DNA of 12,701 nt from a virus. Its lineage: Duplodnaviria; Heunggongvirae; Uroviricota; Caudoviricetes. Shown here piece by piece: positions 1 through 11,928 of the stretch. Numbering within the stretch: the first letter of the stretch is position 1; every line of letters starts with the position of its first letter. The stretch lies in IMG/VR virus record IMGVR_UViG_2526164599_000005. One strand, 5' to 3'. The position numbers and the translations under genes were made by a program. Under the pieces are notes generated by a model. That model had not been told where the DNA came from, ran no database searches, and saw only the letters and a list, made by a program, of their open reading frames with translations.

Positions 1-294
1 CTTTAAGGAGTTCATTTTCCAACGTTTTTTGCCGAGCAGGCGCTGGAGTTCTTTAATCTGCTTCATGGCAGCAGCAAGTTCAGAGGCAGGAACGACCTGC
101 TCTCCTGCGGCCACAGCAGTAAGACTTCCCTCCTGGTATTGCTTGCGCCAGAGAAATAACTGGCTGGCTGCCACACCGTGTTGCCGGGCAACAAGGGAGA
201 CCGTCATTCCCGGTTCAAAACTCTGCTGAACAATAGCGATCTTTTCCTGTGTAGTACGCCGTCTGCGTTTCTCCGGTCCTAAGACATCAATCAT
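1..294 (-). CDS. insC: IS2 transposase OrfA (InsC), 3' end outside window; apparent 1-nt frameshift in the A-run at 25-30
   Basis: Minus-strand translation from ATG (plus 292-294): [90 protein letters not shown]..., matching InsC as I remember it. After GKK the conserved continuation (K)TLENELLK is only in the neighbouring frame. Confidence 0.8.
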
Positions 295-385
295 CTGCTC
301 TCCAATGACTAGTCTAAAAACTAGTATTAAGACTATCACTTATTTAAGTGATATTGGTTGTCTGGAGATTCAGGGGGCCAGTCTA
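1..385 (-). mobile_element. IS2 (IS3 family), partial; left end with terminal inverted repeat, remainder lies beyond the window start
   Basis: Reverse complement of 301-385 reads TAGACTGGCCCCCTGAATCTCCAGACAACCAATATCACTTAAATAAGTGATAGTCTTAATACTAGTTTTTAGACTAGTCATTGGA, which matches my recollection of the IS2 left end; insC follows directly. Terminus placed at 385. Confidence 0.8.
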
Positions 386-560
386 GTCAGCAATGAAATC
401 ACGCAGACCGTCAATAAGAAACTGGAAAACCAGAGTGCGGCAATTCAGCAGATACAGAAGGTTCAGGTTGATACAAATAATAACCTGAACAGCATGTGGG
501 CTGTGAAGCTGCAGCAGATGCAGGACGGACGCCTTTATATCGCGGGTATTGGTGCCGGTA
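386..560 (+). pseudogene. J: Internal fragment of phage host-specificity / central tail fibre gene J, isolated between two IS insertions
   Basis: Open frame VSNEITQTVNKKLENQSAAIQQIQKVQVDTNNNLNSMWAVKLQQMQDGRLYIAGIGAG; joins in frame to 3261-4032 once the IS66-family element and one TSD copy are removed. Confidence 0.65.
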
Positions 561-590
561 GTAAGCGGCTCGTCAGAACCGTATTGATAT

Positions 591-2164
591 TTACTGAGAG
601 CTCAGATCAACTTTCCAGGGCAACAGATCGCGTACCCGGTTTGCCGGCCAGTCCTGGATATGTTCAATGACGTAGCGCAGCCACTTTCTGGTCTCCACCA
701 TTGTTCAGACGGCATGTGCCGATCAGCGAGTACAACACCGCCGCATGTTCACCACCGCTGTCGGAACCCGCGAACATCCAGTTTTTCCGGCCTACGGCCA
801 CTCCCCGTAAGGCGTTCTCTGCGATGTTGTTGTCGATTTCCACCCAGCCATTACTGCAGTACACGTTCAGTGCATCCCACTGTTTCAGCAGGTATGCGAA
901 CGCTTTTGCCGTATCTGAGTGACGCGACAGTGTTTTCATCTGTTGCTGTATCCAGTCATACAGTGACTGCATCAGTGGCGCGGCTCTGGTTTTTCTTGCC
1001 GCCAGACGCTGTTCTGCTGAACAGCCCCGGACCTCTGCCTCGATGGCATACAGTTCACCGATACGCTGCAGGGCTTCCGTGGTGATGTCGGTGGGCGCTC
1101 TTGCATGCACATCGTGGATTTTTTCTCCGGGCATGAGCCATACACGCGGCTTCCGTTATTCTGCCGGATTCGTATAACGCCCGGTAACCACCGTAAGCAT
1201 CGGCCTGAAGCACACCGCTGTAACCGGCCAGGTGATTTTGTGGATGGATACCTTTCCGGTCCGGACTGTACGCGAACCAGACCGCCGGGGGCATCTGTGA
1301 ACCGGCGTTACGGTCATCACGGACGTAGACCCACAGCCGGGCTGTCCGGGTTTTACCGCTGCCCGGCTCCTGGACCGGGACGGGGATATCATCAGCATGG
1401 ACTTTACCGGGCATCAGCACATACTGGCGCAGGACGTCATACAGCGGCTCCAGTAGTTCAGCAACGGCACCTGTCCAGCGCCCCAGTGTGGCACGGCTCA
1501 GCTCCACACCCTGACGGCGGTATATCTCTGACTGGCGGTATAACGGCAGATGGTCTGCATATTTTCCGGTGACGACATGGGCCAGGAGCCCCGCTCCGGC
1601 ATAACTGCGTGCAATGGGTTTTGAAGGTACTGGTGCCTGCACGATATGGTCGCACCGACAACAGGCCAGTTTCGGACGTTGTGTTTCGATAACCTTAAAG
1701 GCGCTGCTGATAAGCTCCAGTTGCTCTGACACATCACATCCCAGAGAACTGAGTTCACCACCACAGGCAGGACAGCATTCCTCTTCCGGCCGGATAACCC
1801 GGGTTTCACGGGGAAGTGAGGCCGGTAACGGTTTACGGGCTGAAGACTGGCGCAGGGCGGATGGCAGTACCGGGTCATATTGCTCACCCAGCGTTTCCGC
1901 CATTTCTTCCTGAAGTGCGCTGATTCGCTCCTGTGCTTCCTGTATCTGCCGTTCGGTTTTTGCACGAAGTTTTTCTGAGCTTTTACCGAACTGCATACGT
2001 TGCAGTTTCGCAACCAGCGCCTTCAGCCGGTTGATTTCGGAAGCATAAGCCGCCACCCGCTGTGAGAGCAGGCGGTTGTATTCAGCCATCTGGCGTATGG
2101 TGTCCTGTTGCGTCTGCAACAGTGCCCGCAGGCGGGCGTTCTCATGAGCAAGTGAGGTGTCCAT
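591..2164 (-). CDS. tnpC: IS66-family transposase TnpC, reading frame broken by two single-nucleotide frameshifts (possibly pseudogene)
   Basis: ORF pieces 1055-2164 ([17 protein letters not shown]...MAHARRK) and 664-1134 (...[29 protein letters not shown]...[46 protein letters not shown]), plus a third-frame tail [35 protein letters not shown] ending at stop 591-593. Frame changes fall at T6 (1119-1124) and near 695-703. Confidence 0.85.
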
Positions 2165-2183
2165 ATCCTCACTTTACAACGGG

Positions 2184-2531
2184 TTATATGCGGATTCCAG
2201 CGCGTTCCGTTCGTTTCGGGTGCTTCCAGTTGATACCTTCAAGAAGCATGGATAACTGAGCCGGAGTAAGGTGCACCTTGCCGTCACGGGTGACTGGCCA
2301 GACGAAGCGGCCCCGCTCCAGGCGTTTGGTGAAGAGGCACAGTCCGTCACTGTCAGCCCACAACACTTTTATCTGGTCACCCCGGCGTCCGCGGAAGATG
2401 AACAGGTGTCCGGAGAACGGGTCATCCTTCAGGACGTTCTGAACTTTTGATGCCAGGCCGTTAAAGCCATTTCGCATATCGGTGATACCTGCAACCAGCC
2501 AGATACGCGAACCTGCAGGGAGAGATATCAT
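2184..2531 (-). CDS. tnpB: IS66-family TnpB (Orf2), intact
   Basis: 115-aa [96 protein letters not shown]... typical IS66 Orf2; its ATG overlaps the tnpA stop (ATGA overlap). Confidence 0.9.
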   Translation of the reverse strand: MISLPAGSRIWLVAGITDMRNGFNGLASKVQNVLKDDPFSGHLFIFRGRRGDQIKVLWADSDGLCLFTKRLERGRFVWPVTRDGKVHLTPAQLSMLLEGINWKHPKRTERAGIRI

Positions 2532-3207
2532 CAGTGGCTGCTCCCTTTTATTTCGCGGATAAGTGTCTGTAATAACGCCGGCGTCAGTTTACCTTTAAGC
2601 CTGAGAGTTCCGGCCGGCAGAACCAGCTCACAACACAGACTGTCGGACGGTGTATTTATCTGCTCTGGTTCCTGTGCGGGGGCCGGGATTTTATTATCCG
2701 GCTCCGGCGTTAACGTCACGGGAAGCAGTGCCGGCATATTTTTCCGGAAGGCAGCAGGCCACCTTTCCGGTATTGATGGCGCCAGTTGAAGAGCAGGTTA
2801 TCGTTGATTCCGTTTTCCCGGGCGATCTGCGCCACACAGGCTCCGGGCTGCAGTGACTGCTCCACTAAGGCGATTTTAAACTCATAAGGGAAGTTGGGCC
2901 GCCGGGGACGTTTTTTTACCACGGGGGCTTCGGATATAACGGTGCTTTCAGGACGTACGACTGGTACCGTGGAAAATTGTCCGTAAAGGCAGGCATCAAG
3001 TTCCTGCTCCGACATGCCTGCGGGCAAAGGCCACGAAAGGCCAGCTCTCCGAAAGCGCACGAACATACTACAAACTGTTGATTTTGGTACACCCAGGCGA
3101 CGCCCGGCCACAACCCGGGGTAAATGTTCTTCAAAGTGAAGACGTAAAGCTTCAGTGATCCAGGTCCGGTGTTTCATACGATAGTGTCCATTAAAAATGA
3201 TGGACAT
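2531..3207 (-). CDS. tnpA: IS66-family TnpA (Orf1) with one apparent frameshift and an unusually long N-terminal extension; start codon uncertain (3207 or 3177)
   Basis: ORF 2716-3207 contains the IS66 Orf1 HTH core [53 protein letters not shown]; ORF 2531-2737 gives the expected C-terminal part [11 protein letters not shown]...[29 protein letters not shown]. They are joined by a frame change at the T5 run 2739-2743. Confidence 0.7.
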
Positions 3208-3260
3208 TATTTTTGTAGAGCCGGAGGAAACAGACCAGACGGTTTAAATGAGCCGGTTAC

Positions 3261-4032
3261 TGCCGGTATTGAGAACACCCCTGACGGCATGCAGAGTCAG
3301 GTGCTGCTGGCGGCGGACAGGATTGCGATGGTTAATCCTGCGAATGGCAACACAAAACCGATGTTTGTTGGTCAGGGCGATCAGATATTCATGAACGACG
3401 TGTTCCTGAAACGCCTGACGGCCCCCACCATTACCAGCGGTGGAAATCCACCGGCATTTTCCCTGACTCCGGACGGAAAGCTGACCGCTAAAAATGCGGA
3501 TATCAGTGGCAGTGTGAATGCGAACGCCGGGACGCTCAACAATGTCACGGTAAATGAAAACTGTACGATTAAGGGCATGCTGGAGGCGACTCAGGTCAGA
3601 GGTGACTTCGTTAAAGCTGTATCCAAATCATTCCCGAAACAGGCTGGTACGTGGGGTAACACGGAAACACCAAACGGGACGGTTACAGTCACCATAAGCG
3701 ATGATCATAACTTTGACCGTCAAATCATTATTCCGCCCATTATCTTTAACGGAATAGCGTATAGCGATCCGGGAAGTGGTAATAACCCGGGAGGTACAAG
3801 ATACACGGGTTATGGTTTTGAAGTTCGCAAAAACGGTGTATTAATCGCATCCAGAGAAACTAAAGGGGCTATTCCCGGTAGCTACAGTGCGGTTATTGAT
3901 ATGCCGAGTGGCAGGGGAAGCGTCACTCTGGAGTTTAAGGTTTTCCATAAAGGCAATCAGTGGGCAGGTAATATCACCGACTGTACGGTGATTGTGACCA
4001 AAAAAGCCGCTTCCGGCATCAGTATTCGTTGA
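3261..4032 (+). pseudogene. J: C-terminal (receptor-binding) fragment of phage host-specificity protein J, severed from its 5' part by the IS insertions
   Basis: [86 protein letters not shown]...[10 protein letters not shown] resembles the lambda J C-terminus as I recall it; position directly upstream of lom fits. Confidence 0.85.
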
Positions 4033-4052
4033 AATTGTTATAACCCATATAA

Positions 4053-4080
4053 GGGCACCAGAAATGGTGCCTTTTTTATT
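4053..4080 (+). terminator. Rho-independent terminator downstream of J
   Basis: GGGCACC (4053-4059), loop AGAAAT, GGTGCC (4066-4071), then TTTTTTATT. Confidence 0.6.
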
Positions 4081-4101
4081 GCAGAAAAGCGAGAGGTAAT
4101 T

Positions 4102-4701
4102 ATGCGTAAACTTTATGCCGCCATTTTGTCCGCAGCCATTTGTCTGGCCGTATCCGGTGCGCCTGCATGGGCATCTGAACATCAGTCCACGCTGAGCGCG
4201 GGGTATCTTCATGCCTTGACGAACGTTCCCGGCAGCGATGATCTTAACGGGATTAACGTGAAATACCGTTATGAGTTTACGGACACACTGGGGCTGGTGA
4301 CGTCATTCAGCTATGCAGGAGACAAGAATCGCCAGCTTACCCGTTACAGCGATACCCGCTGGCATGAAGATTCAGTGCGTAACCGCTGGTTCAGCGTGAT
4401 GGCGGGGCCGTCTGTGCGCGTGAATGAATGGTTCAGCGCGTATGCGATGGCGGGTATGGCTTACAGCCGTGTTTCGACTTTCTCCGGGGATTATCTCCGC
4501 GTAACTGACAACAAGGGGAAAACGCACGACGTGCTGACCGGAAGTGATGACGGTCGCCACAGCAACACGTCTCTGGCGTGGGGGGCTGGCGTGCAGTTTA
4601 ACCCGACCGAATCCGTGGCCATTGATATTGCTTATGAAGGCTCCGGCAGTGGTGACTGGCGCACTGACGGTTTCATCGTGGGTGTCGGTTATAAATTCTG
4701 A
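4102..4701 (+). CDS. lom: Lom-family outer membrane protein (Ail/Lom/PagC/OmpX beta-barrel family)
   Basis: 199 aa with N-terminal signal peptide [24 protein letters not shown] and C-terminus [27 protein letters not shown] as in lambda Lom; SD GAGAGG 6 nt upstream; located between J and stf. Confidence 0.9.
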
Positions 4702-4728
4702 TTAGCCAGGTAACACAGTGTTATGACA

Positions 4729-4754
4729 GCCCGCCGGTTCAGGCGGGCTTTTTT
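4729..4754 (+). terminator. Rho-independent terminator downstream of lom
   Basis: GCCCGCC (4729-4735), loop GGTTCA, GGCGGGC (4742-4748), then TTTTTT (4749-4754). Confidence 0.65.
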
Positions 4755-4765
4755 GTGGGGTGAAT

Positions 4766-7700
4766 ATGGCAGTAAAGATTTCAGGTGTACTGAAAGACGG
4801 CACAGGAAAACCGGTACAGAACTGCACAATCCAGCTGAAAGCAAAACGTAACAGCACCACGGTGGTGGTGAACACGCTGGCCTCAGAAAATCCGGATGAA
4901 GCCGGGCGTTACAGCATGGACGTTGAGTACGGTCAGTACAGCGTTATTCTGTTGGTGGAAGGCTTCCCGCCGTCACATGCCGGGACCATCACCGTGTATG
5001 AAGATTCCCGACCCGGTACGCTGAATGATTTTCTCGGTGCCATGACGGAGGATGATGCCCGTCCGGAGGCACTGCGCCGTTTTGAACTGATGGTGGAAGA
5101 GGTGGCGCGTAACGCGTCCGCAGTGGCACAGAACACGGCAGCCGCGAAGAAGTCAGCCAGTGATGCCAGCACATCTGCCCGTGAGGCGGCAACCCATGCA
5201 ACCGATGCTGCAGGCTCAGCACGTGCCGCCAGCACGTCAGCCGGACAGGCTGCATCATCTGCTCAGTCAGCATCTTCCAGCGCAGGAACGGCATCAACAA
5301 AGGCCAGTGAAGCATCGAAAAGTGCTGCTGCTGCAGAGTCCTCAAAAAGCGCGGCAGCTACCAGTGCCAGTGCCGCGAAAACGTCAGAAACGAATGCGGC
5401 AGCGTCACAAAAATCTGCAGCCACTTCTGCATCCGCCGCGACCACGAAGGCGTCAGAAGCTGCCACCTCAGCCCGGGATGCGGCGGCCTCAAAAGAGGCA
5501 GCGAAATCATCAGAAACGAACGCATCATCAAGCGCCAGTAGTGCAGCTTCCTCGGCAACGGCGGCAGGAAATTCCGCGAAGGCGGCAAAGACGTCTGAGA
5601 CAAACGCTAAGTCTTCTGAGACGGCAGCGGAACAGAGTGCCTCCGCAGCAGCAGACTCAAAAACAGCGGCTGCATCATCTGCCAGCGCCGCGTCAACAAG
5701 TGCCGGGCAGGCCTCAGCCAGTGCCACCGCCGCCGGAAAGTCGGCAGAAAGTGCCGCATCGTCTGCTTCAACAGCCACAACGAAGGCTGGCGAAGCCACT
5801 GAACAGGCCAGCGCAGCAGCGAGTTCTGCTTCCGCAGCGAAGACATCCGAAACGAACGCGAAAGCGTCGGAAACCCGTGCAGAATCCTCAAAAACGGCTG
5901 CCGCATCGTCAGCCAGTTCGGCGGCGTCATCGGCATCATCTGCGTCTGCTTCAAAAGATGAGGCGACCAGACAAGCGTCAGCAGCGAAGAGCAGCGCCAC
6001 GACGGCATCCACGAAGGCGACAGAGGCAGCTGGCAGTGCGACGGCGGCAGCACAGAGCAAAAGTACGGCGGAATCCGCGGCAACGCGCGCCGAGACAGCG
6101 GCAAAACGGGCAGAGGATATTGCATCCGCCGTGGCGCTTGAGGATGCGAGCACGACGAAAAAGGGGGTAGTACAGCTCAGCAGTGCGACCAACAGTACGT
6201 CTGAAACGCTGGCGGCAACGCCAAAGGCAGTAAAATCAGCCTATGACAATGCAGAGAAACGTCTGCAGAAAGACCAGAACGGCGCTGATATACCCGATAA
6301 GGGACACTTCCTGAACAACATTAACGCGGTCAGTAAAACAGACTTTGCTGATAAGCGCGGTATGCGTTATGTGCGGGTTAATGCTCCTGCAGGTGCAACA
6401 TCTGGAAAATATTACCCTGTTGTTGTTATGCGTTCTGCTGGCTCAGTAAGCGAACTGGCATCAAGGGTCATTATCACCACGGCAACGCGAACCGCAGGCG
6501 ATCCGATGAATAACTGCGAGTTTAACGGATTTGTTATGCCTGGTGGCTGGACTGACAGGGGGCGTTATGCTTATGGCATGTTCTGGCAATATCAAAACAA
6601 TGAACGAGCCATCCACTCAATAATGATGAGTAATAAGGGCGATGATTTGCGCTCTGTGTTCTATGTTGATGGCGCTGCTTTCCCTGTTTTTGCGTTTATC
6701 GAAGATGGCCTGTCAATATCCGCACCTGGTGCTGATCTCGTTGTTAATGATACGACCTATAAGTTTGGGGCAACAAATCCGGCGACTGAATGTATCGCGG
6801 CGGACGTTGTCCTTGATTTTAAGAGTGGGCGTGGTTTTTATGAGTCTCATTCGTTAATCGTTAACGATAACTTGTCGTGCAAAAAACTTTTTGCCACAGA
6901 CGAAATTGTAGCGCGTGGTGGTAATCAGATTCGAATGATAGGTGGGGAGTATGGTGCATTATGGCGTAATGATGGCGCTAAAACTTACCTGCTGCTTACC
7001 AATCAAGGTGATGTTTATGGTGGCTGGAATACATTAAGACCGTTTGCTATTGATAACGCAACCGGCGAACTGATTATTGGAACCAAACTGTCCGCAAGTC
7101 TGAACGGTAATGCATTAACAGCAACAAAGCTGCAAACGCCAAGACTGGTTTCTGGTGTTGAGTTTGATGGTTCCAAAGATATTACTTTAACCGCTGCGCA
7201 TGTGGCTGCTTTTGCCAGAAGGGCAACTGATACATATGCCGATGCGGATGGTGGCGTTCCCTGGAATGCCGAATCAGGCGCTTACAATGTCACCCGCTCT
7301 GGCGACAGCTATATTCTGGTTAACTTCTATACCGGAGTCGGAAGTTGCCGGACCCTGCAGATGAAGGCGCATTACAGAAATGGAGGTCTGTTCTACCGTT
7401 CCTCAAGAGATGGCTATGGTTTTGAGGAAGACTGGGCAGAAGTTTATACCTCGAAAAATCTTCCACCAGAAAGCTACCCAGTCGGCGCACCAATCCCGTG
7501 GCCATCAGATACCGTTCCGTCTGGCTATGCCCTGATGCAGGGGCAGACTTTTGACAAATCTGCATACCCGAAACTTGCAGTGGCTTATCCGTCAGGCGTT
7601 ATTCCTGATATGCGTGGCTGGACGATTAAGGGCAAACCTGCCAGTGGTCGTGCCGTATTGTCTCAGGAACAGGACGGCATTAAATCGCACACCCACAGCG

Positions 7701-8164
7701 CCAGCGCATCCAGTACGGATTTGGGTACGAAAACCACATCGTCGTTTGATTACGGCACTAAATCCACGAATAACACCGGGGCTCATACGCATAGTCTGAG
7801 CGGCTCTACAAGCTCGGCTGGAGCACACTCGCACGTTGATGGGCGCAGGTTTAATACAAGCACTTTTAAAGACACCTATCAGTATGGTTCTACAGCTGTC
7901 GGAAGTAACTCATACCAGGTACAAGGGGCGGTTGGTCTGGGCGTTGGTACGATGGCGAATACGAACTCTGCTGGCGCGCACACCCACTCACTGTCCGGCA
8001 CTGCTGCAAGCGCAGGCGCACACGCACATACTGTCGGTATTGGTGCACACACGCACTCCGTTGCGATTGGTTCACATGGACACACCATCACCGTTAACGC
8101 TGCTGGTAACGCGGAAAACACCGTCAAAAACATTGCATTTAACTATATTGTGAGGCTTGCATAA
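4766..8164 (+). CDS. stf: Side tail fibre protein Stf (lambda Stf / Rac StfR-like), 1132 aa from ATG 4766 (ORF track starts at GTG 4760)
   Basis: N-terminus [37 protein letters not shown] matches the lambda Stf N-terminus as I recall it; Ala/Ser/Thr-rich SETNA repeat region; C-terminal His-rich GAHTHS/GAHAHT motifs ending [18 protein letters not shown]; stop overlaps the tfa ATG (TAATG). Confidence 0.9.
5110..6200 (+). repeat. Coding low-complexity tandem repeat region in stf (Ala/Ser/Thr-rich, [15 protein letters not shown] fibre repeats)
   Basis: Protein residues about 115-480 are almost entirely A/S/T/K/E with recurring TSETNA, SSASAA and TKASEA units; GC-rich DNA with open frames on both strands. 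Confidence 0.6.
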
Positions 8165-8745
8165 TGGCATTCAGAATGAGTGAACAAGCACGGACCATAA
8201 AAATTTATAATCTGCTGGCCGGAACTAATGAATTTATTGGTGAAGGTGACGCATATATTCCGCCTCATACAGGTCTGCCAGCAAACAGTACCGATATTGC
8301 ACCGCCAGATATTCCAGCAGGCTTCGTGGCTGTTTTCAACAGTGATGAGGCATCGTGGCATCTTGTTGAAGACCATCGGGGTAAAACAGTTTATGACGTG
8401 GCATCAGGGGACGCGTTATTTATTTCTGAACTCGGCTCATTACCGGAAAATGTTACCTGGTTATCCCCGGAAGGGGAGTTTCAGAAGTGGAACGGCACAG
8501 CCTGGGTGAAGGATACGGAAGCAGAAAAACTGTTCCGGATCCGGGAGGCGGAAGAAACAAAAAACAGCCTGATGCAGGTAGCCAGTGAGCATATAGCGCC
8601 ACTTCAGGATGCTGTAGATCTGGAGATCGCAACGGAGGAAGAAAACTCGTTGCTGGAAGCCTGGAAGAAGTATCGGGTGTTGCTGAACCGTGTTAATACA
8701 ACAACTGCACCGGATATTGAATGGCCAGTAGCACCTATAGGGTAA
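8164..8745 (+). CDS. tfa: Tail fibre assembly protein Tfa
   Basis: 193 aa [91 protein letters not shown]... closely matches lambda Tfa as I recall it; translationally coupled to stf. Confidence 0.92.
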
Positions 8746-8827
8746 ATTCGTAATGATTACCTAAATACGTTATTCTTTTGCTCAAAAAGTGATTTTGCTA
8801 TAGGTAGAGAGTATGTTCTTGGATTAA

Positions 8828-8861
8828 GAATAAAAAATCGCCATGAAAGAGCTTCATGGCG
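8828..8861 (-). terminator. Candidate rho-independent terminator for a minus-strand transcript converging on tfa
   Basis: Plus strand has 9-bp stem CGCCATGAA (8839-8847), loop AGAGC, TTCATGGCG (8853-8861), preceded by TAAAAAAT (8831-8838); on the minus strand the hairpin is followed by ATTTTTTATTCTT. Confidence 0.45.
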
Positions 8862-9331
8862 AGTACATAAACGGTACAAAATATGATGAAAGTAGAGCGG
8901 CGTAAGCCACTATATTAAGATATGACAATAGCGAAGAAAAGTAAATAACATTTTATGGACGTTTAATTGTTAATTATAAAAACTAGAGTGCCCGATATTG
9001 TTTATCTTGCTTTAAAATAATGTACTCAAACCAAATTTTTGAGCTAAAAGCTCAAATAATATAAATGCAATGATAATGTTTAATAAGACAATTAGCTTGC
9101 TTTGTATTTTCATTTCGGAATACTGTTAAGTAACTTTGATGACCCTAACAATAGATCGGAATTTTCTTAGAGTCAATGGTCACTGTATTTGCTTGCAAAG
9201 CAAATGTTTTGGTGGTTATAAGTTTTCTTAATATAGTCACCTATGCAACTTGTTCCGTGTGGAGATTAAAGGTTAAAATTTAATGCGAAGATGGAATTAT
9301 ATTATATTTTTATAATTAATTTAACCTTAAC

Positions 9332-9432
9332 ATCGTTGCTGGCGGCATGGAAGAAATATCGGGTCTTGCTGATGTCGTGTTGGCACTTCCTTAGTGCCGG
9401 ATATCGAAAGGCCAGCTGTACCTGTGGGGTGA
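9332..9432 (+). repeat. Degenerate direct copy of the tfa 3' end (remnant 1, non-coding scar)
   Basis: ATCGTTGCTGGCGGCATGGAAGAAATATCGGGTCTTGCTGA...CCGGATATCGAAAGGCCAG...GGGGTGA aligns to tfa 8647-8745 (CTCGTTGCTGGAAGCCTGGAAGAAGTATCGGGTGTTGCTGA...CCGGATATTGAATGGCCAG...AGGGTAA). Roughly three-quarters identity by eye, with indels and an internal stop. Confidence 0.7.
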
Positions 9433-9564
9433 AAACTTTATATGGATGCTATTTTTATAATAGCTGGTAAAAACTGGCCGAACTGAAATTCACTGTTGAT
9501 AAAAAAGATGTGTTTGAGTGTATGTCATTGTTTTCTTAATGGAATCCACTAGAATACAGCGAAT

Positions 9565-9762
9565 TTAAGAAGGTGGATTTTTATTGGAATATAAACTACA
9601 ATAATGCTCAACTCGTTCGTAGAATTGTTTTTTCTTATTTCTTGGAATGCTAACTATTATATGCATTATGGGGGCGATACTTCCTGATAATTTACATGAT
9701 GCATACATTGAAGCAATAAATTCAATATCATTGTCATCAAAGTTAAAGCTTTCTCCGTTCAT
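9565..9762 (-). CDS. Hypothetical small protein (65 aa), unrecognised
   Basis: ORF MNGESFNFDDNDIEFIASMYASCKLSGSIAPIMHIIVSIPRNKKKQFYERVEHYCSLYSNKNPPS; minus-strand context TAAGGAATTGAAATG gives an AAGGA Shine-Dalgarno 6 nt before the ATG. AT-rich, so a chance ORF is possible. Confidence 0.3.
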   Translation of the reverse strand: MNGESFNFDDNDIEFIASMYASCKLSGSIAPIMHIIVSIPRNKKKQFYERVEHYCSLYSNKNPPS

Positions 9763-10087
9763 TTCAATTCCTTATGTGTTTGACACAACTGATGCTGTAT
9801 CCCATGAGAATTTATGCAAGTTGTTATGTTTGATTTGATATTGCAATGATAATTGTAGCTAATTGTTTTCAATTGAGTGAAAGTTTATTTCGAGTGATTA
9901 AGTCGAAAAAAAAGATTTCTCACGGTTAGTAAGCGTATTAGGTCAGTATTCAGATATGAATGGTATTAATGACTAAATTTTCAATCATATATGGATTTTT
10001 ATGCTGATGAAGGTGTTTTATTTGGCGATTCGTCAAGCATCTTCACTTAAGTAATCGTATATTTTAAGAGTGCAAAAGAGAAAGGGA

Positions 10088-10190
10088 CAACGTTGCTCGC
10101 ACTCTGGATTAAATATAGGGTATTGTTAAACTTCGTTGATACATAATTGTACCGGATATTGAGTGGTCTGAAGTCCCAGTCATTAAGTAA
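10088..10190 (+). repeat. Second, more diverged and AT-shifted direct copy of the tfa 3' end (remnant 2)
   Basis: ACGTTGCTCGCACTCTGGATTAAATATAGGGTATTGTTAAACTTCGTTGATACATAA...CCGGATATTGAGTGGTCTGAAGTCCCAGTCATTAAGTAA; translation TLLALWIKYRVLLNFVDT* / PDIEWSEVPVIK* parallels tfa [20 protein letters not shown] / [11 protein letters not shown]. Confidence 0.6.
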
Positions 10191-10538
10191 TTGTTTCGTG
10201 ATATGCTGCAGAAACGTTGTATGCAATAACGTTCTGCGGTTGGCTGGTGAACTTTCGATAGTGCGGGTATTGAATGATTTCCAGCCGTTACCGATTTTAT
10301 ATAACTGCAGTGGAATTATTCAACACACAGGCAAAACGGAATAAGCTGAGAAAAAAGCGTGCTTTCCCAATCTGGGGCAAATCACTTCTGAATGACACCT
10401 GAAAACAGGTGGTGGACTCAAGAAGGCTTGGAATATTCTTCTTTAATGTTATGTAATTCATTGATTTTTCGTGTACGATTTTAAGACATTTATTCCAAGA
10501 AAAATTTTTAACTCTTTGATTTTTCGACTCTGTATCAT

Positions 10539-10600
10539 CGGTCTCGAAAACCGGAGTAGGGGCAACTCTACCGGGGGTTCAAATCCCCCTCTCTCCGCCA
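10539..10600 (+). other. 3' fragment (about 62 nt, anticodon stem to CCA) of tRNA-Ser(CGA); attR-type core repeat, not a functional tRNA
   Basis: CGGTCTCGAAAACCGGAGTAGGGGCAACTCTACCGGGGGTTCAAATCCCCCTCTCTCCGCCA matches the 3' part of E. coli serU as I recall it (anticodon loop CTCGAAA, long variable arm, T-arm GGGGGTTCAAATCCCCC). No complementary 5' acceptor strand upstream. Confidence 0.75.
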
Positions 10601-11184
10601 CTTTATCAATGACTTATCTCCCGACTTCCCGCCTTGCTTTTCCTAAACAGAACAATCGTAGAATATTCTTGAAGGGTTAGATCGTCACTGTTTTCTGTTC
10701 GATACTGTGACATTCAGCACTTGATTCACTATGGATCTGACAGGAAGGTTTTGAGCGAAAATTTGCAGTTATTCAGTCGTTTTCTTATCGGTCACCATTA
10801 TTCTTTTAGACATTGATCCTACAAAGCTGCCGCAAAGTTGGTGGTGGGAACTGAAGTTGCGTAGAGAAGGGGTCAATACCCGGAGGCAAACATGGGCTGG
10901 CAAAAGTGTAGCGGTATTAGGCGCAGCTATTTAGCCTAGTTATGTTTTATGAAAACTTGATATCATATAAGTGTCTTACTTATTGGCTGTAAATAAGTTT
11001 TTCCTAAGGAATTGTTTCTTGAGTATCATTTGTAACTGTAACGGAATTTATAATCCTTTGCTTTATTGTTACGGTATTTTTTATCACACCCTATTTTTTA
11101 TGTGGTTTTTTATACTGAAGTTTGGCAAAGTGAACTTTATATGCATATACTTCATCCTGGTTTCAGTTAAGTTGGGTGGATGAT

Positions 11185-11928
11185 ATGGCAACTACATGTT
11201 CAGTTATATTGATTTTGGAGTCCTTTGATGTTTATTTCGGAAAAGAGAGTGTGTTTCTAGAGAAAGGTTCATCTGTACTTGTCGACTCTAGCTCTAGAGA
11301 TTTTTTCCTGACATATCCTGAAAGAGTGATAGTGGCGGATTTTGGCGCTGAGTTTATTAGTCGCTATTTGAAAGCTAATAACTTAAGGGATATTTCTGAT
11401 TGTAGGGAATATCCATCTTATTTAAAAATAAACTTTGCTGACTTCAGTTTAATTAAAGGATTAATTAGTTGGGCTAATCACTGTGCTGAATACATAGAAA
11501 TTTTTGATGAGTCTATTGCTTTTACATGTCTCTCTGCATTTTCTTCTGAAAAACAATTTGGAGTATTTCTGTTTGAATGTTTGAAAAGCACAGAGGCTAA
11601 AGTTAAAACGATTATTCATACGGATTTATCTGCACCATGGCGTCTTAAGGATATATCATCAAGATTATATCTCAGCGAAAGTTTACTAAAGAGGAAATTG
11701 AAAGAAGAGGGGGTATCATTCAGTAAGATCATACTTGATGAGAGGATGCAAATGGCTGAATATTTACTCAGCACTCGTTGTTATCCTATTAGTAAAGTAG
11801 CTAAGGTCTGTGGTTATGCCAGTGTCTCATACTTTACTTATGTATTTAGACGTTATTTTGGTGTTTCTCCAAGTCAATACTCTCAGAGGAGTTCAGAAAG
11901 TAAAATTCTTACTCACCAGGGAATCTGA
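11185..11928 (+). CDS. AraC/XylS-family transcriptional regulator, YdeO/AppY/EnvY-like (horizontally acquired type); 247 aa from ATG 11185 (ORF track starts at GTG 11176)
   Basis: C-terminal dual-HTH region WRLKDISSRLYLSESLLKRKLKEEGVSFSKIILDERMQMAEYLLSTRCYPISKVAKVCGYASVSYFTYVFRRYFGVSPSQY resembles YdeO/AppY as I recall them; N-terminus TCSVILILESFD resembles their CSV(V/I)FI motif; GGTGGA SD-like sequence 4 nt upstream; very AT-rich. Confidence 0.85.
   Translation: MATTCSVILILESFDVYFGKESVFLEKGSSVLVDSSSRDFFLTYPERVIVADFGAEFISRYLKANNLRDISDCREYPSYLKINFADFSLIKGLISWANHCAEYIEIFDESIAFTCLSAFSSEKQFGVFLFECLKSTEAKVKTIIHTDLSAPWRLKDISSRLYLSESLLKRKLKEEGVSFSKIILDERMQMAEYLLSTRCYPISKVAKVCGYASVSYFTYVFRRYFGVSPSQYSQRSSESKILTHQGI

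Follow-up and report, generated by a model that had tools for sequence, protein, structure and literature searches.

Anatomy of the AT-rich segment downstream of tfa

The window, that is, the whole 12,701-nt stretch of viral DNA analysed here, carries an intact tail fibre assembly gene (tfa) that is directly followed by a segment of very different composition (positions 8746–10538). The GC content of this segment is only 0.332, compared to 0.529 at positions 1–8745 and 0.479 in tfa, and the 300-nt GC profile falls from 0.50 to 0.30–0.34 directly past the tfa stop at 8745. The longest ORFs have 65 aa and lie at 9565–9762 on the minus strand and at 10147–10344 on the plus strand. The initial annotation was thus right to call the segment AT-rich and ORF-poor, and its description as a prophage cargo position was correct as well. 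The lack of ORFs is at chance level, because it is predicted by the AT-rich composition: in dinucleotide-preserving shuffles of the segment the longest ORF measured 75 ± 18 aa, and in 35% of the shuffles it did not exceed 65 aa.

As judged from its sequence, the segment is the left part of the accessory, non-essential b region of a lambdoid phage, and it is built from cassettes. The features of the segment and its edges are:

8164–8745, plus strand: tfa, intact tail fibre assembly gene (193-aa ORF; Pfam Caudo_TAP, E = 3.4e-43)
8746–9323, leftward unit: cassette A, a moron-like unit of promoter-like site, 33-codon ORF and terminator
8828–8862, minus strand: intrinsic terminator of the yncL-like unit (terminator scan; stem 8862 to 8838, U-tract 8837 to 8828)
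8863–9011, minus strand: 3' UTR of the predicted yncL-like mRNA, conserved towards the terminator and variable next to the stop codon
9012–9113, minus strand: ORF33, MKIQSKLIVLLNIIIAFILFELLAQKFGLSTLF, a predicted YncL-like single-pass membrane peptide of 33 aa (homology and selection)
9148–9176, minus strand: putative sigma-70-like promoter of ORF33 (consensus scan; TTGACT, 17-nt spacer, TATTGT)
9333–9433, plus strand: tfa 3' remnant 1, a scar between cassettes A and B (88% and 66% repeats, families D1 and D2)
9565–9762, minus strand: ORF65, a small soluble orphan protein (genome annotation; PGAP 'hypothetical protein' WP_001438255)
9852–9881, minus strand: promoter-like site upstream of ORF65, inferred from a consensus scan (TTCACT, 18-nt spacer, TACAAT)
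10071–10299, plus strand: tfa 3' remnant 2 (to ~10190) and normal tfa-downstream sequence (10191–10299)
10344–10538, plus strand: fossil right arm of a serU-integrating lambdoid prophage (97–98% identity to the right ends of the serU prophages L006 and L012)
10539–10878, plus strand: the 3' 62 nt of the serU tRNA-Ser and 278 bp of host serU–yodB intergenic DNA, at the right edge just outside the segment

On its left, the segment borders on tfa, which the matching genomes label tail fiber assembly protein and whose 3' end recurs as a recombination anchor.

Alignment with other genomes establishes the mosaic anatomy of the segment. Its cassettes are bounded by the tfa 3' end, either as the intact gene or as a remnant of ~100 nt. 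The tfa-derived repeats noticed in the initial annotation were recovered at 9333–9433 and 10090–10190 (families D1 and D2), with matches to Rfam IS009, the match of remnant 1 being partial. The L003 and L010 records list remnant 1 as a partial, frameshifted tail fiber assembly protein. The remnant 2 region has 79% identity to the end of lambda tfa, and positions 10071–10299 match the spacer between a tfa pseudogene and dinI in O157 contiguously (76%); in the L080 record, a DinI-like gene comes next after this region. Furthermore, positions 10219–10299 are 91% identical to the ykgJ–ecpE spacer of the core genome. The same geometry is found at ykgJ in the core genome, where a tfa remnant is followed by a minus-strand gene and then by the 81-nt tfa-downstream element.

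The fossil serU arm, with which the stack of cassettes closes, contains direct repeats at 10454–10471 and 10509–10526 (family D6), which may represent integrase arm sites. The captured serU block to its right has 97% identity to positions 2043191–2043530 of K-12 MG1655 and recurs in two viable phages, ev099 and PhiR70_1; ARAGORN detected no intact tRNA at this block (10539–10878). A 54-aa ORF at 10297–10461, annotated in ev099, straddles the recombination junction at 10344 and is probably spurious.

Probably, the segment grew through successive recombination events at the conserved tfa 3' end, each of which would leave a tfa remnant and stack a short AT-rich cassette. Small leftward genes, convergent to the late operon, are found in two of the cassettes. 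The locus would then offer a clean example of how recombination at the tfa end and aberrant excision, with its captured serU flank, build the cargo regions of prophages.

The small genes of cassettes A and B

Cassette A occurs in 831 of the 5426 complete E. coli genomes (~15%) at several attachment sites (lambda att, Qin/ydfJ, serU and the sit island), and is present in the viable phages ev099, PhiR70_1 and mEp332. In L080, tfa is followed by cassette B and not by cassette A. A metagenome scan with a back-translated pattern returned only the two known alleles, and only two matches of 21–22 nt turned up when 185,579 species-representative genomes were scanned with 20-mers, about one being expected by chance. 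Compared to the diverged allele in L010, the promoter block is 90% conserved (63% upstream and 75% downstream of it), the ORF 82% without indels and the terminator 91%, whereas the spacers, including those that flank the terminator, reach 56–67% and contain indels.

ORF33 is intact in every full-length copy (32 unique sequences and 22 metagenome contigs) and in both known alleles, and it is unannotated in all 70 genome records listed. Its 18 differences from the L010 allele are distributed 7/1/10 over the three codon positions. They comprise 11 synonymous and 7 non-synonymous steps (pN/pS 0.16; randomisation P < 5e-5), in a selection test that amounts to about one deep comparison because only two allele families exist.

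The predicted peptide resembles YncL, a small protein that is translated, membrane-localised and stress-induced, and that depolarises the membrane when overproduced (PMC12542507, PMC10470546, PMC5437024). YncL is b4598 in E. coli and STM14_1932/STnc1110 in Salmonella, and its NCBIfam model is NF000537. NF000537 was the only NCBIfam match of ORF33 (E = 1.3e-5, 25.0 bits, profile positions 1–28 of 30; 23.5 bits for the L010 allele), at a score below the curated NCBI equivalog cut-off of 35 bits. BLASTP against K-12 YncL gave 39% identity and 64% positives over residues 1–28 without gaps (E = 2e-7). The Smith-Waterman score of this pair was 60, which none of 20,000 shuffles reached (20 ± 4), and seven unrelated small hydrophobic proteins scored 20–29 against ORF33. 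GRAVY and the best 19-residue window were 1.51 and 2.54 for ORF33, versus 1.34 and 2.15 for YncL. A tblastn search of phages with ORF33 was uninformative, as it returned no match despite exact copies there, presumably owing to low-complexity masking. No recognisable Shine-Dalgarno sequence precedes the start of ORF33, whereas K-12 yncL has AAGGTGG.

The promoter-like site of ORF33 matches the consensus at 9 of 12 positions, and the region holds no excess of matches of this kind. Its −35 element is identical in both alleles, while the −10 element reads TATTGT or TATCGT. We infer that this promoter fires in lysogens. An ORF annotated in PhiR70_1 (window positions 9144–9257, minus strand) overlies the promoter region, has indels there in L010, and was rejected as a gene.

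At the other end of the unit, the minus strand carries the hairpin TCGCCATGAAG-CTC-TTTCATGGCGA (8862 to 8838), an 11-bp stem that is followed by the T-tract TTTTTTATTC. None of 300 shuffles contained a terminator of equal strength (perfect stem of ≥9 bp, ≥4 GC pairs, T-tract), and the stem at 8862–8838 is invariant in five aligned copies. The initial annotation had rightly recognised a good minus-strand terminator, but saw no obvious protein gene placed to use it. Contrary to that view, a conserved 33-codon ORF on the same strand ends 150 nt upstream.

The sequence comparisons thus demonstrate the integrity of ORF33, purifying selection on it, its homology to YncL, the conservation of the promoter and terminator blocks and the occurrence of the gene in viable phages. 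Initiation at the promoter (9176–9148) would give a transcript of ~310 nt that encodes a YncL-homologous, single-pass membrane peptide of 33 residues and ends at the terminator (8862–8838), which would also block leftward antisense transcription into tfa. The peptide would reside in the inner membrane, and its production would lower the membrane potential, an effect known for YncL (PMC12542507). If the promoter fires and the peptide depolarises, the lysogen would gain a stress, dormancy or exclusion phenotype.

In cassette B, ORF65 is preceded by a conserved Shine-Dalgarno sequence (AAGGA, 9773 to 9769) and by the promoter-like site, of which the −10 element is unchanged in L080 and the −35 element reads TTCACC there. 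The diverged L080 copy of ORF65 (79% nucleotide identity) keeps exactly 65 codons; all six indels between the two versions of cassette B lie in the flanks and none in the ORF, with a pN/pS of 0.38 for the latter (randomisation P = 2e-4). AF2 predicts a 3-helix bundle (pLDDT 85). Family and protein searches found no family and no relatives of ORF65 outside E. coli, and searches of 5.8 billion clustered and 1.84 billion representative proteins returned none of greater length. A relationship with the theta subunit of DNA polymerase III (HolE) or with phage P1 Hot was considered; the likeness in fold is not specific. The plus-strand ORF63 (9647–9838) was rejected as a gene, as a 2-nt deletion shifts its frame in L080 and most of its polymorphisms are non-synonymous. 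The predicted product of cassette B is an orphan protein of 65 aa with three helices, and its gene has a good ribosome-binding site. Cassette B is absent, together with remnant 2, from viable phages, and truncated ORF65 variants circulate, so that it is dispensable and may be decaying. Since it lacks its own terminator, cassette B may read through into cassette A.

Explanations for the segment

We consider it probable that the segment is a stack of b-region cassettes, in which cassette A is a moron-type unit for a YncL-like peptide, ended by the terminator, and cassette B carries the ORF65 gene. Among the options raised initially, this agrees with a small-protein locus: the promoter–ORF–terminator unit encodes a YncL-like 33-aa peptide under purifying selection, and ORF65 is constrained too. 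A degraded cargo gene, another of these options, found no support, as homology searches of cassettes A and B detected no degraded larger gene; blastn at distant sensitivity recovered the same cassettes only.

Alternatively, the whole segment might be non-functional debris, made up of tfa scars, a fossil att arm and AT-rich filler, with the small ORFs and the hairpin being incidental. Such pure decay had been suggested before, and the suggestion holds for about half of the segment, because the two tfa 3' remnants, the displaced tfa-downstream flank and the fossil serU attachment arm, together ~40% of its length, are recombination debris. The chance-level scarcity of ORFs would suit decay, as would the viable phages that lack cassette B and remnant 2, and the absence of significant matches of the segment ORFs of at least 33 aa in Pfam, PHROGs and PADLOC. 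Yet debris would not be expected to show synonymous-biased divergence and indel-free ORFs in both cassettes, promoter and terminator blocks conserved beside fast-diverging spacers, significant homology to YncL, or a terminator unexpected by chance, and we regard decay of the entire segment as unlikely.

A different alternative is that cassette A acts through its RNA, as an Hfq-type sRNA derived from the 3' UTR or as a dual-function RNA, to which the peptide is secondary. The 120 nt proximal to the terminator are indeed the best conserved part of the unit (88–91%, versus 82% for the ORF): within the 3' UTR, identity to L010 is 88% at 8863–8950 and only 56% directly after the stop (8951–9011), with indels confined to the latter. 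This proximal part contains two hairpins with wobble or loop changes only, including a 6-bp hairpin at 8896–8911 for which this applies in three lineages, and the 138-nt 3' end of the unit folds with z = −4.8. The missing Shine-Dalgarno sequence of ORF33 also points in this direction, prophage sRNAs are common in E. coli (10.64898/2026.05.13.724894), and the yncL transcript of Salmonella was itself first catalogued as an sRNA, STnc1110, before its coding nature was shown (PMC5437024), a precedent that also suits the small-protein reading. However, the codon-position pattern indicates that the ORF is constrained as a protein, and compensatory changes were found at 0 of the 37 predicted pairs in the aligned cassette A copies. 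Moreover, a covariance-model search of the segment against Rfam (E ≤ 1) yielded only the tfa-derived IS009. PasB and other Pas sRNAs were likewise rejected as content of the segment; in E2348/69, the PasB locus falls between gpI and gpJ, and the window does not contain the PasB probe sequence. An RNA as the main product therefore seems quite improbable.

Less probable still, in our opinion, is that cassette A is a type I toxin-antitoxin system in which ORF33 is a membrane toxin controlled by an antisense RNA. ORF33 is a small hydrophobic prophage peptide without a Shine-Dalgarno sequence, overproduction of YncL depolarises the membrane and lowers viability (PMC12542507), and a plus-strand promoter-like site at 8922–8951 faces ORF33, all of which would be consistent with such a system. 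This site is the only promoter-like one on the plus strand, however, and its −35 element is lost in L010 (ATGACA to ATAGCA); no plus-strand terminator was found in cassette A. In addition, ORF33 has no similarity to Ibs, Ldr, ShoB, TisB, DinQ or ZorO (scores 20–29), its NCBIfam matches are to YncL only, and YncL is described as a stress-induced small membrane protein rather than a toxin-antitoxin toxin (PMC12542507, PMC10470546, PMC5437024).

Returning to the cassette stack, a wider and rather speculative reading is that the conserved tfa 3' end serves lambdoid phages as a reusable recombination anchor for gathering, stacking and swapping short AT-rich cassettes, each with a small leftward gene, and that the YncL-like peptide is a regulated, membrane-depolarising prophage cargo. 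Superinfection exclusion, abortive infection and dormancy would then be possible roles, and control at the RNA level could act through the conserved 3' UTR hairpins and the start without a Shine-Dalgarno sequence.

This conserved gene for a predicted small membrane protein, unannotated in the records inspected, is thus found in about 15% of the complete E. coli genomes and in no fewer than three viable lambdoid phages. Few small membrane proteins have a described effect on the cell; YncL is one of them, causing membrane depolarisation and nucleoid condensation, and its phage-borne paralog therefore provides a concrete case, open to testing, in which a phage would have borrowed a stress micro-protein from its host. 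ORF33 thereby gives a handle on what YncL-type peptides do. For prophage DNA that appears ORF-poor and AT-rich, it would be advisable to screen ORFs of <50 codons before labelling such regions as junk or sRNA.

Comparison with known systems

Phage morons are independent promoter–gene–terminator units of deviant composition that lie between conserved phage genes; the concept is said to go back to Juhala and Hendrix, with gp15 of HK97 reportedly an example. Cassette A is alike in that ORF33 has its own promoter-like site and terminator, and in its GC content of 0.30–0.34 compared to ~0.5 (0.48–0.53) in its neighbours. Furthermore, it is variably present in related prophages, lies in a non-essential region and encodes a predicted small membrane protein. 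It differs in its location, since ORF33 lies outside the late operon, within the b region, and is oriented convergently to that operon.

Exchangeable effector loci downstream of the tail fibre genes in lambdoid prophages of EHEC and EPEC were reportedly described by Tobe et al. in 2006. In O157, such a cargo locus contains espW, espM2 and a tfa remnant. The segment shares the position right after the tail fibre and tfa genes, the AT-rich composition and the flanking tfa pseudogene remnants. In contrast to these loci, it contains two small ORFs, and no type III secretion effector or known virulence gene was found in it.

The Pas sRNAs (Pearl Mizrahi 2021, PMC8550237; Zhu, Shabalina and Storz 2026 preprint) are also prophage-encoded and lie near Rfam matches to IS009 and isrG, as found in the window; the preprint gives these two as the usual neighbours of PasB. 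PasB differs in its antisense location between gpI and gpJ, as noted above.

The closest comparison is with YncL itself. K-12 yncL resides in the core patD–yncL–ortT region, whereas ORF33 is prophage-borne, AT-rich and located after tfa at no fewer than four attachment sites. The C-terminus of ORF33 is 2 residues longer, its profile score is below the equivalog cut-off, it lacks a Shine-Dalgarno sequence, and the two loci share no similarity at the DNA level. Conversely, both peptides have ~31–33 aa with a basic residue at the N-terminus and one hydrophobic helix, and 11 of 28 residues aligned without gaps are identical, among them those of L-x-N, L-F-x-L and [RK]-F-G. Both yncL and ORF33 are short monocistronic units with an intrinsic terminator and their own promoter, which in the case of ORF33 is putative.

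A mosaic segment at the right end of the prophage

We interpret the AT-rich segment to the right of tfa (8746-10538) as a small-protein locus set in recombination debris. The initial annotation was therefore partly right: a small-protein locus was one of its candidate explanations, and debris does surround it. The window covers the right end of a lambdoid prophage of E. coli. An IS66-family element (~560-3260) splits the tail tip gene gpJ, and because gpJ is left as fragments, the prophage cannot make tails.

Prophage genes and insertion element in the window
5' part of the window, gpJ, interrupted by the insertion element
305-670 and 3169-4032, residual J fragments
664-1134 and 1055-2164, minus, DDE transposase of the IS66-family element in two frameshifted pieces
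2184-2531, minus, TnpB_IS66
2716-3207, minus, tnpA-like HTH ORF of the IS66-family element
between gpJ and stf, lom
4760-8164, stf, side tail fibre gene
8164-8745, tfa, directly left of the AT-rich segment

In line with the initial annotation, composition shifts abruptly after the tfa stop: the GC profile drops from ~0.50 to 0.30-0.34 directly 3' of it, and GC is 0.332 in the segment versus 0.529 in all sequence upstream. The segment indeed lacks ORFs above 65 aa (the longest in the ORF scan), although this is expected because its composition alone predicts it; the longest ORF in shuffles of the segment was 75 ± 18 aa, and was at most 65 aa in 35% of them. The tfa-derived repeats were recovered by the repeat search, and comparison with annotated genomes and phages resolved the following pieces.

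Pieces of the segment
8746-9323, cassette A, in 831 of 5426 complete E. coli genomes
9333-9433, tfa 3' remnant 1
9434-10070, cassette B, in 591 genomes
10071-10299, tfa 3' remnant 2 and the sequence that usually follows it, 79% identity to the lambda tfa end
10344-10538, right arm of a serU-integrating prophage, 97-98% identity to prophage ends at serU

These pieces occur as tfa-A-joint-serU arm in phages and serU prophages, as tfa-A-remnant-B-remnant-host at the Qin/ydfJ and lambda att sites, and as the recombinant A-B-serU arm of the window. The latter was found in one other fetched locus (L001), and also in eight closely related OkiPb genomes (99.4% identity) from bovine faeces in Okinawa. 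A dinI-like gene comes after the sequence of remnant 2 and its downstream part in O157 and strain 210205630. In the latter strain, an intact tfa is directly followed by a diverged cassette B; A and B are therefore alternative post-tfa cassettes, which have been stacked via tfa 3' homology.

The Rfam family IS009 (RF02111) has a 225-bit match in the 3' part of the tfa coding sequence (8507-8705) and weak matches in both tfa remnants (9317-9392 and 9957-10148). What counts as an 'sRNA family' is, in the window, no more than the conserved 3' end of tfa. An 81-nt element normally located 3' of tfa (10219-10299) shares 91% identity with the ykgJ-ecpE spacer, and this part of the query has a match in 5219 of 5426 E. 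coli genomes. The opposite flank of ykgJ holds a tfa 3' remnant (79% identity; L005, NZ_CP148119, 2448-3081). With a remnant on one side and the 81-nt element on the other, the minus-strand core gene ykgJ is therefore arranged like the leftward small genes of cassettes A and B, between a tfa end and the tfa-downstream element.

Directly beyond the segment, 10539-10878 consists of the 3'-terminal 62 nt of tRNA-Ser serU and 278 bp of host serU-yodB intergenic DNA (97% identity to K-12). The b regions of the viable phages ev099 and PhiR70_1 hold this block, an AraC-family regulator gene and IS fragments; in ev099 these sit upstream of a lambda-type int/xis, while the PhiR70_1 record stops before any int gene. 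Since host flank is carried in a phage b region, its most plausible reading is as a relic left by aberrant excision from serU; it looks like a fixed product of such excision in the style of specialised transduction. The two copies of an 18-nt direct repeat immediately left of the serU core (10454-10471 and 10509-10526, 55 nt apart; TAATTCATTGATTTTTCG and TAACTCTTTGATTTTTCG) are candidates for the arm-type sites bound by integrase in the fossil attachment site. The regulator gene (11176-11928; Pfam HTH_AraC/HTH_18) is part of the AT-rich b region, has IS fragments after it, is >99% conserved in both phages, and likely encodes a lysogenic-conversion regulator.

Coding potential of cassettes A and B

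The minus-strand terminator singled out previously stands up well: the terminator scan found an 11-bp stem (8862->8838) followed by TTTTTTATTC, and none of 300 dinucleotide shuffles gave a comparably strong site. Contrary to the earlier statement that no obvious protein gene is placed to use it, a conserved ORF ends 150 nt upstream on the same strand.

Small ORFs of the segment
9113-9012, minus, ORF33 of cassette A, 33 codons, encodes MKIQSKLIVLLNIIIAFILFELLAQKFGLSTLF
9762-9565, minus, ORF65 of cassette B, 65 aa, PGAP hypothetical protein

Each of the 32 unique full-length copies found in genomes and viral contigs has an intact ORF33, as do 22 metagenome contigs. The known copies fall into just two allele families, and divergence was measured against the allele of L010 (strain 7.1994/NIST0056), which is 81% identical over cassette A. 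The 18 nucleotide differences in ORF33 cause just 5 amino-acid changes (11 synonymous and 7 non-synonymous steps, pN/pS 0.16; 7/1/10 by codon position), a pattern that 18 random substitutions equalled in 0 of 20,000 trials. Within alleles, three further polymorphisms are synonymous and two are non-synonymous singletons.

Conservation of cassette A relative to the L010 allele
Region upstream of -35: 63% identity, indels present
Promoter block (9148-9176): 90%, no indels
ORF33: 82%, no indels
Stretch 3' of the ORF33 stop codon: 56%, indels present
Terminator-proximal 3' UTR: 88%, 2 gap columns, one private to the window
Terminator: 91%, no indels
tfa-to-terminator spacer: 67%, indels present

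This conservation profile is that of a functional gene. The sequence of the promoter-like site is TTGACT-17-TATTGT, with an identical -35 in both alleles. A weakness of the coding case is that no Shine-Dalgarno sequence was found before the ORF33 ATG. A 1-nt insertion at 8873 in the conserved 3' UTR (ACGGT vs ACGT) sets the window apart from every other copy compared, even from the OkiPb genomes with their 99.4% identity, and an A-to-G change in the window makes one base pair of the 8896-8911 hairpin a G-U wobble. ORF33 was annotated in none of the 70 genome matches listed nor in phage records, and a 15-billion-protein collection held one two-member cluster only, derived from metagenome gene calls.

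ORF65 is a real yet dispensable orphan. In the 79%-identical cassette B copy of strain 210205630 it keeps exactly 65 codons, with all six indels between the copies in non-coding sequence and 0 within the ORF (pN/pS 0.38; randomisation P=2e-4). Its Shine-Dalgarno sequence AAGGA, which precedes the ATG by 6 nt, and an upstream -10 TACAAT are also unchanged. The AlphaFold model is a confident three-helix bundle (pLDDT 85), and sequence and structure searches found no family, relatives outside E. coli or specific structural neighbour. Truncated variants circulate, and cassette B is absent from viable phages. The terminator scan found no intrinsic terminator 3' of ORF65; transcription of ORF65 may therefore continue into cassette A and stop at the terminator there.

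Proposed function and alternative explanations

The leftward b-region genes converge on the late operon, and the terminator ends the leftward unit or units just short of tfa. The product is most likely a small inner-membrane peptide made by the lysogen from its own promoter.

Pure decay of the segment is unlikely, as it conflicts with the coding-type substitution pattern. The same pattern conflicts with an RNA as the only product of cassette A, for which neither an Rfam match nor pair covariation was found, and which we consider slightly less probable still. A type I toxin-antitoxin system is very improbable, since no conserved antisense promoter or terminator was found. We interpret cassette A as a YncL-family micro-protein gene carried as a phage moron, with an orphan small protein gene alongside.

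Relationship with YncL

The sole NCBIfam match of both ORF33 alleles is NF000537, "stress response membrane protein YncL" (E-value 1.3e-5; 25 bits, under the 35-bit equivalog cut-off). ORF33 aligns gap-free over residues 1-28 with the product of yncL read from K-12, 39% of positions being identical and 64% positive (BLASTP, E=2e-7). The Smith-Waterman score was 60, versus 20 +/- 4 for shuffles, and seven unrelated small hydrophobic proteins and toxins scored 20-29. The literature searched made no mention of the ORF33 sequence or of a prophage YncL.

YncL, an inner-membrane protein of 31 aa, is induced by heat shock and in minimal medium, and its production leads to membrane depolarisation and nucleoid condensation (PMC12542507). 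It is cleaved in vivo by RseP (PMC10470546). In Salmonella, the sigma-S dependent yncL transcript was initially catalogued as sRNA STnc1110 (PMC5437024). By analogy, the ORF33 peptide, once induced, would lower the membrane potential; that it serves in tolerating stress or in excluding phages is speculation. In contrast to ORF33, yncL of K-12 is preceded by a strong Shine-Dalgarno sequence, and the two loci share no DNA similarity. ORF33 is thus a relative of YncL that is a diverged paralog rather than an ortholog.
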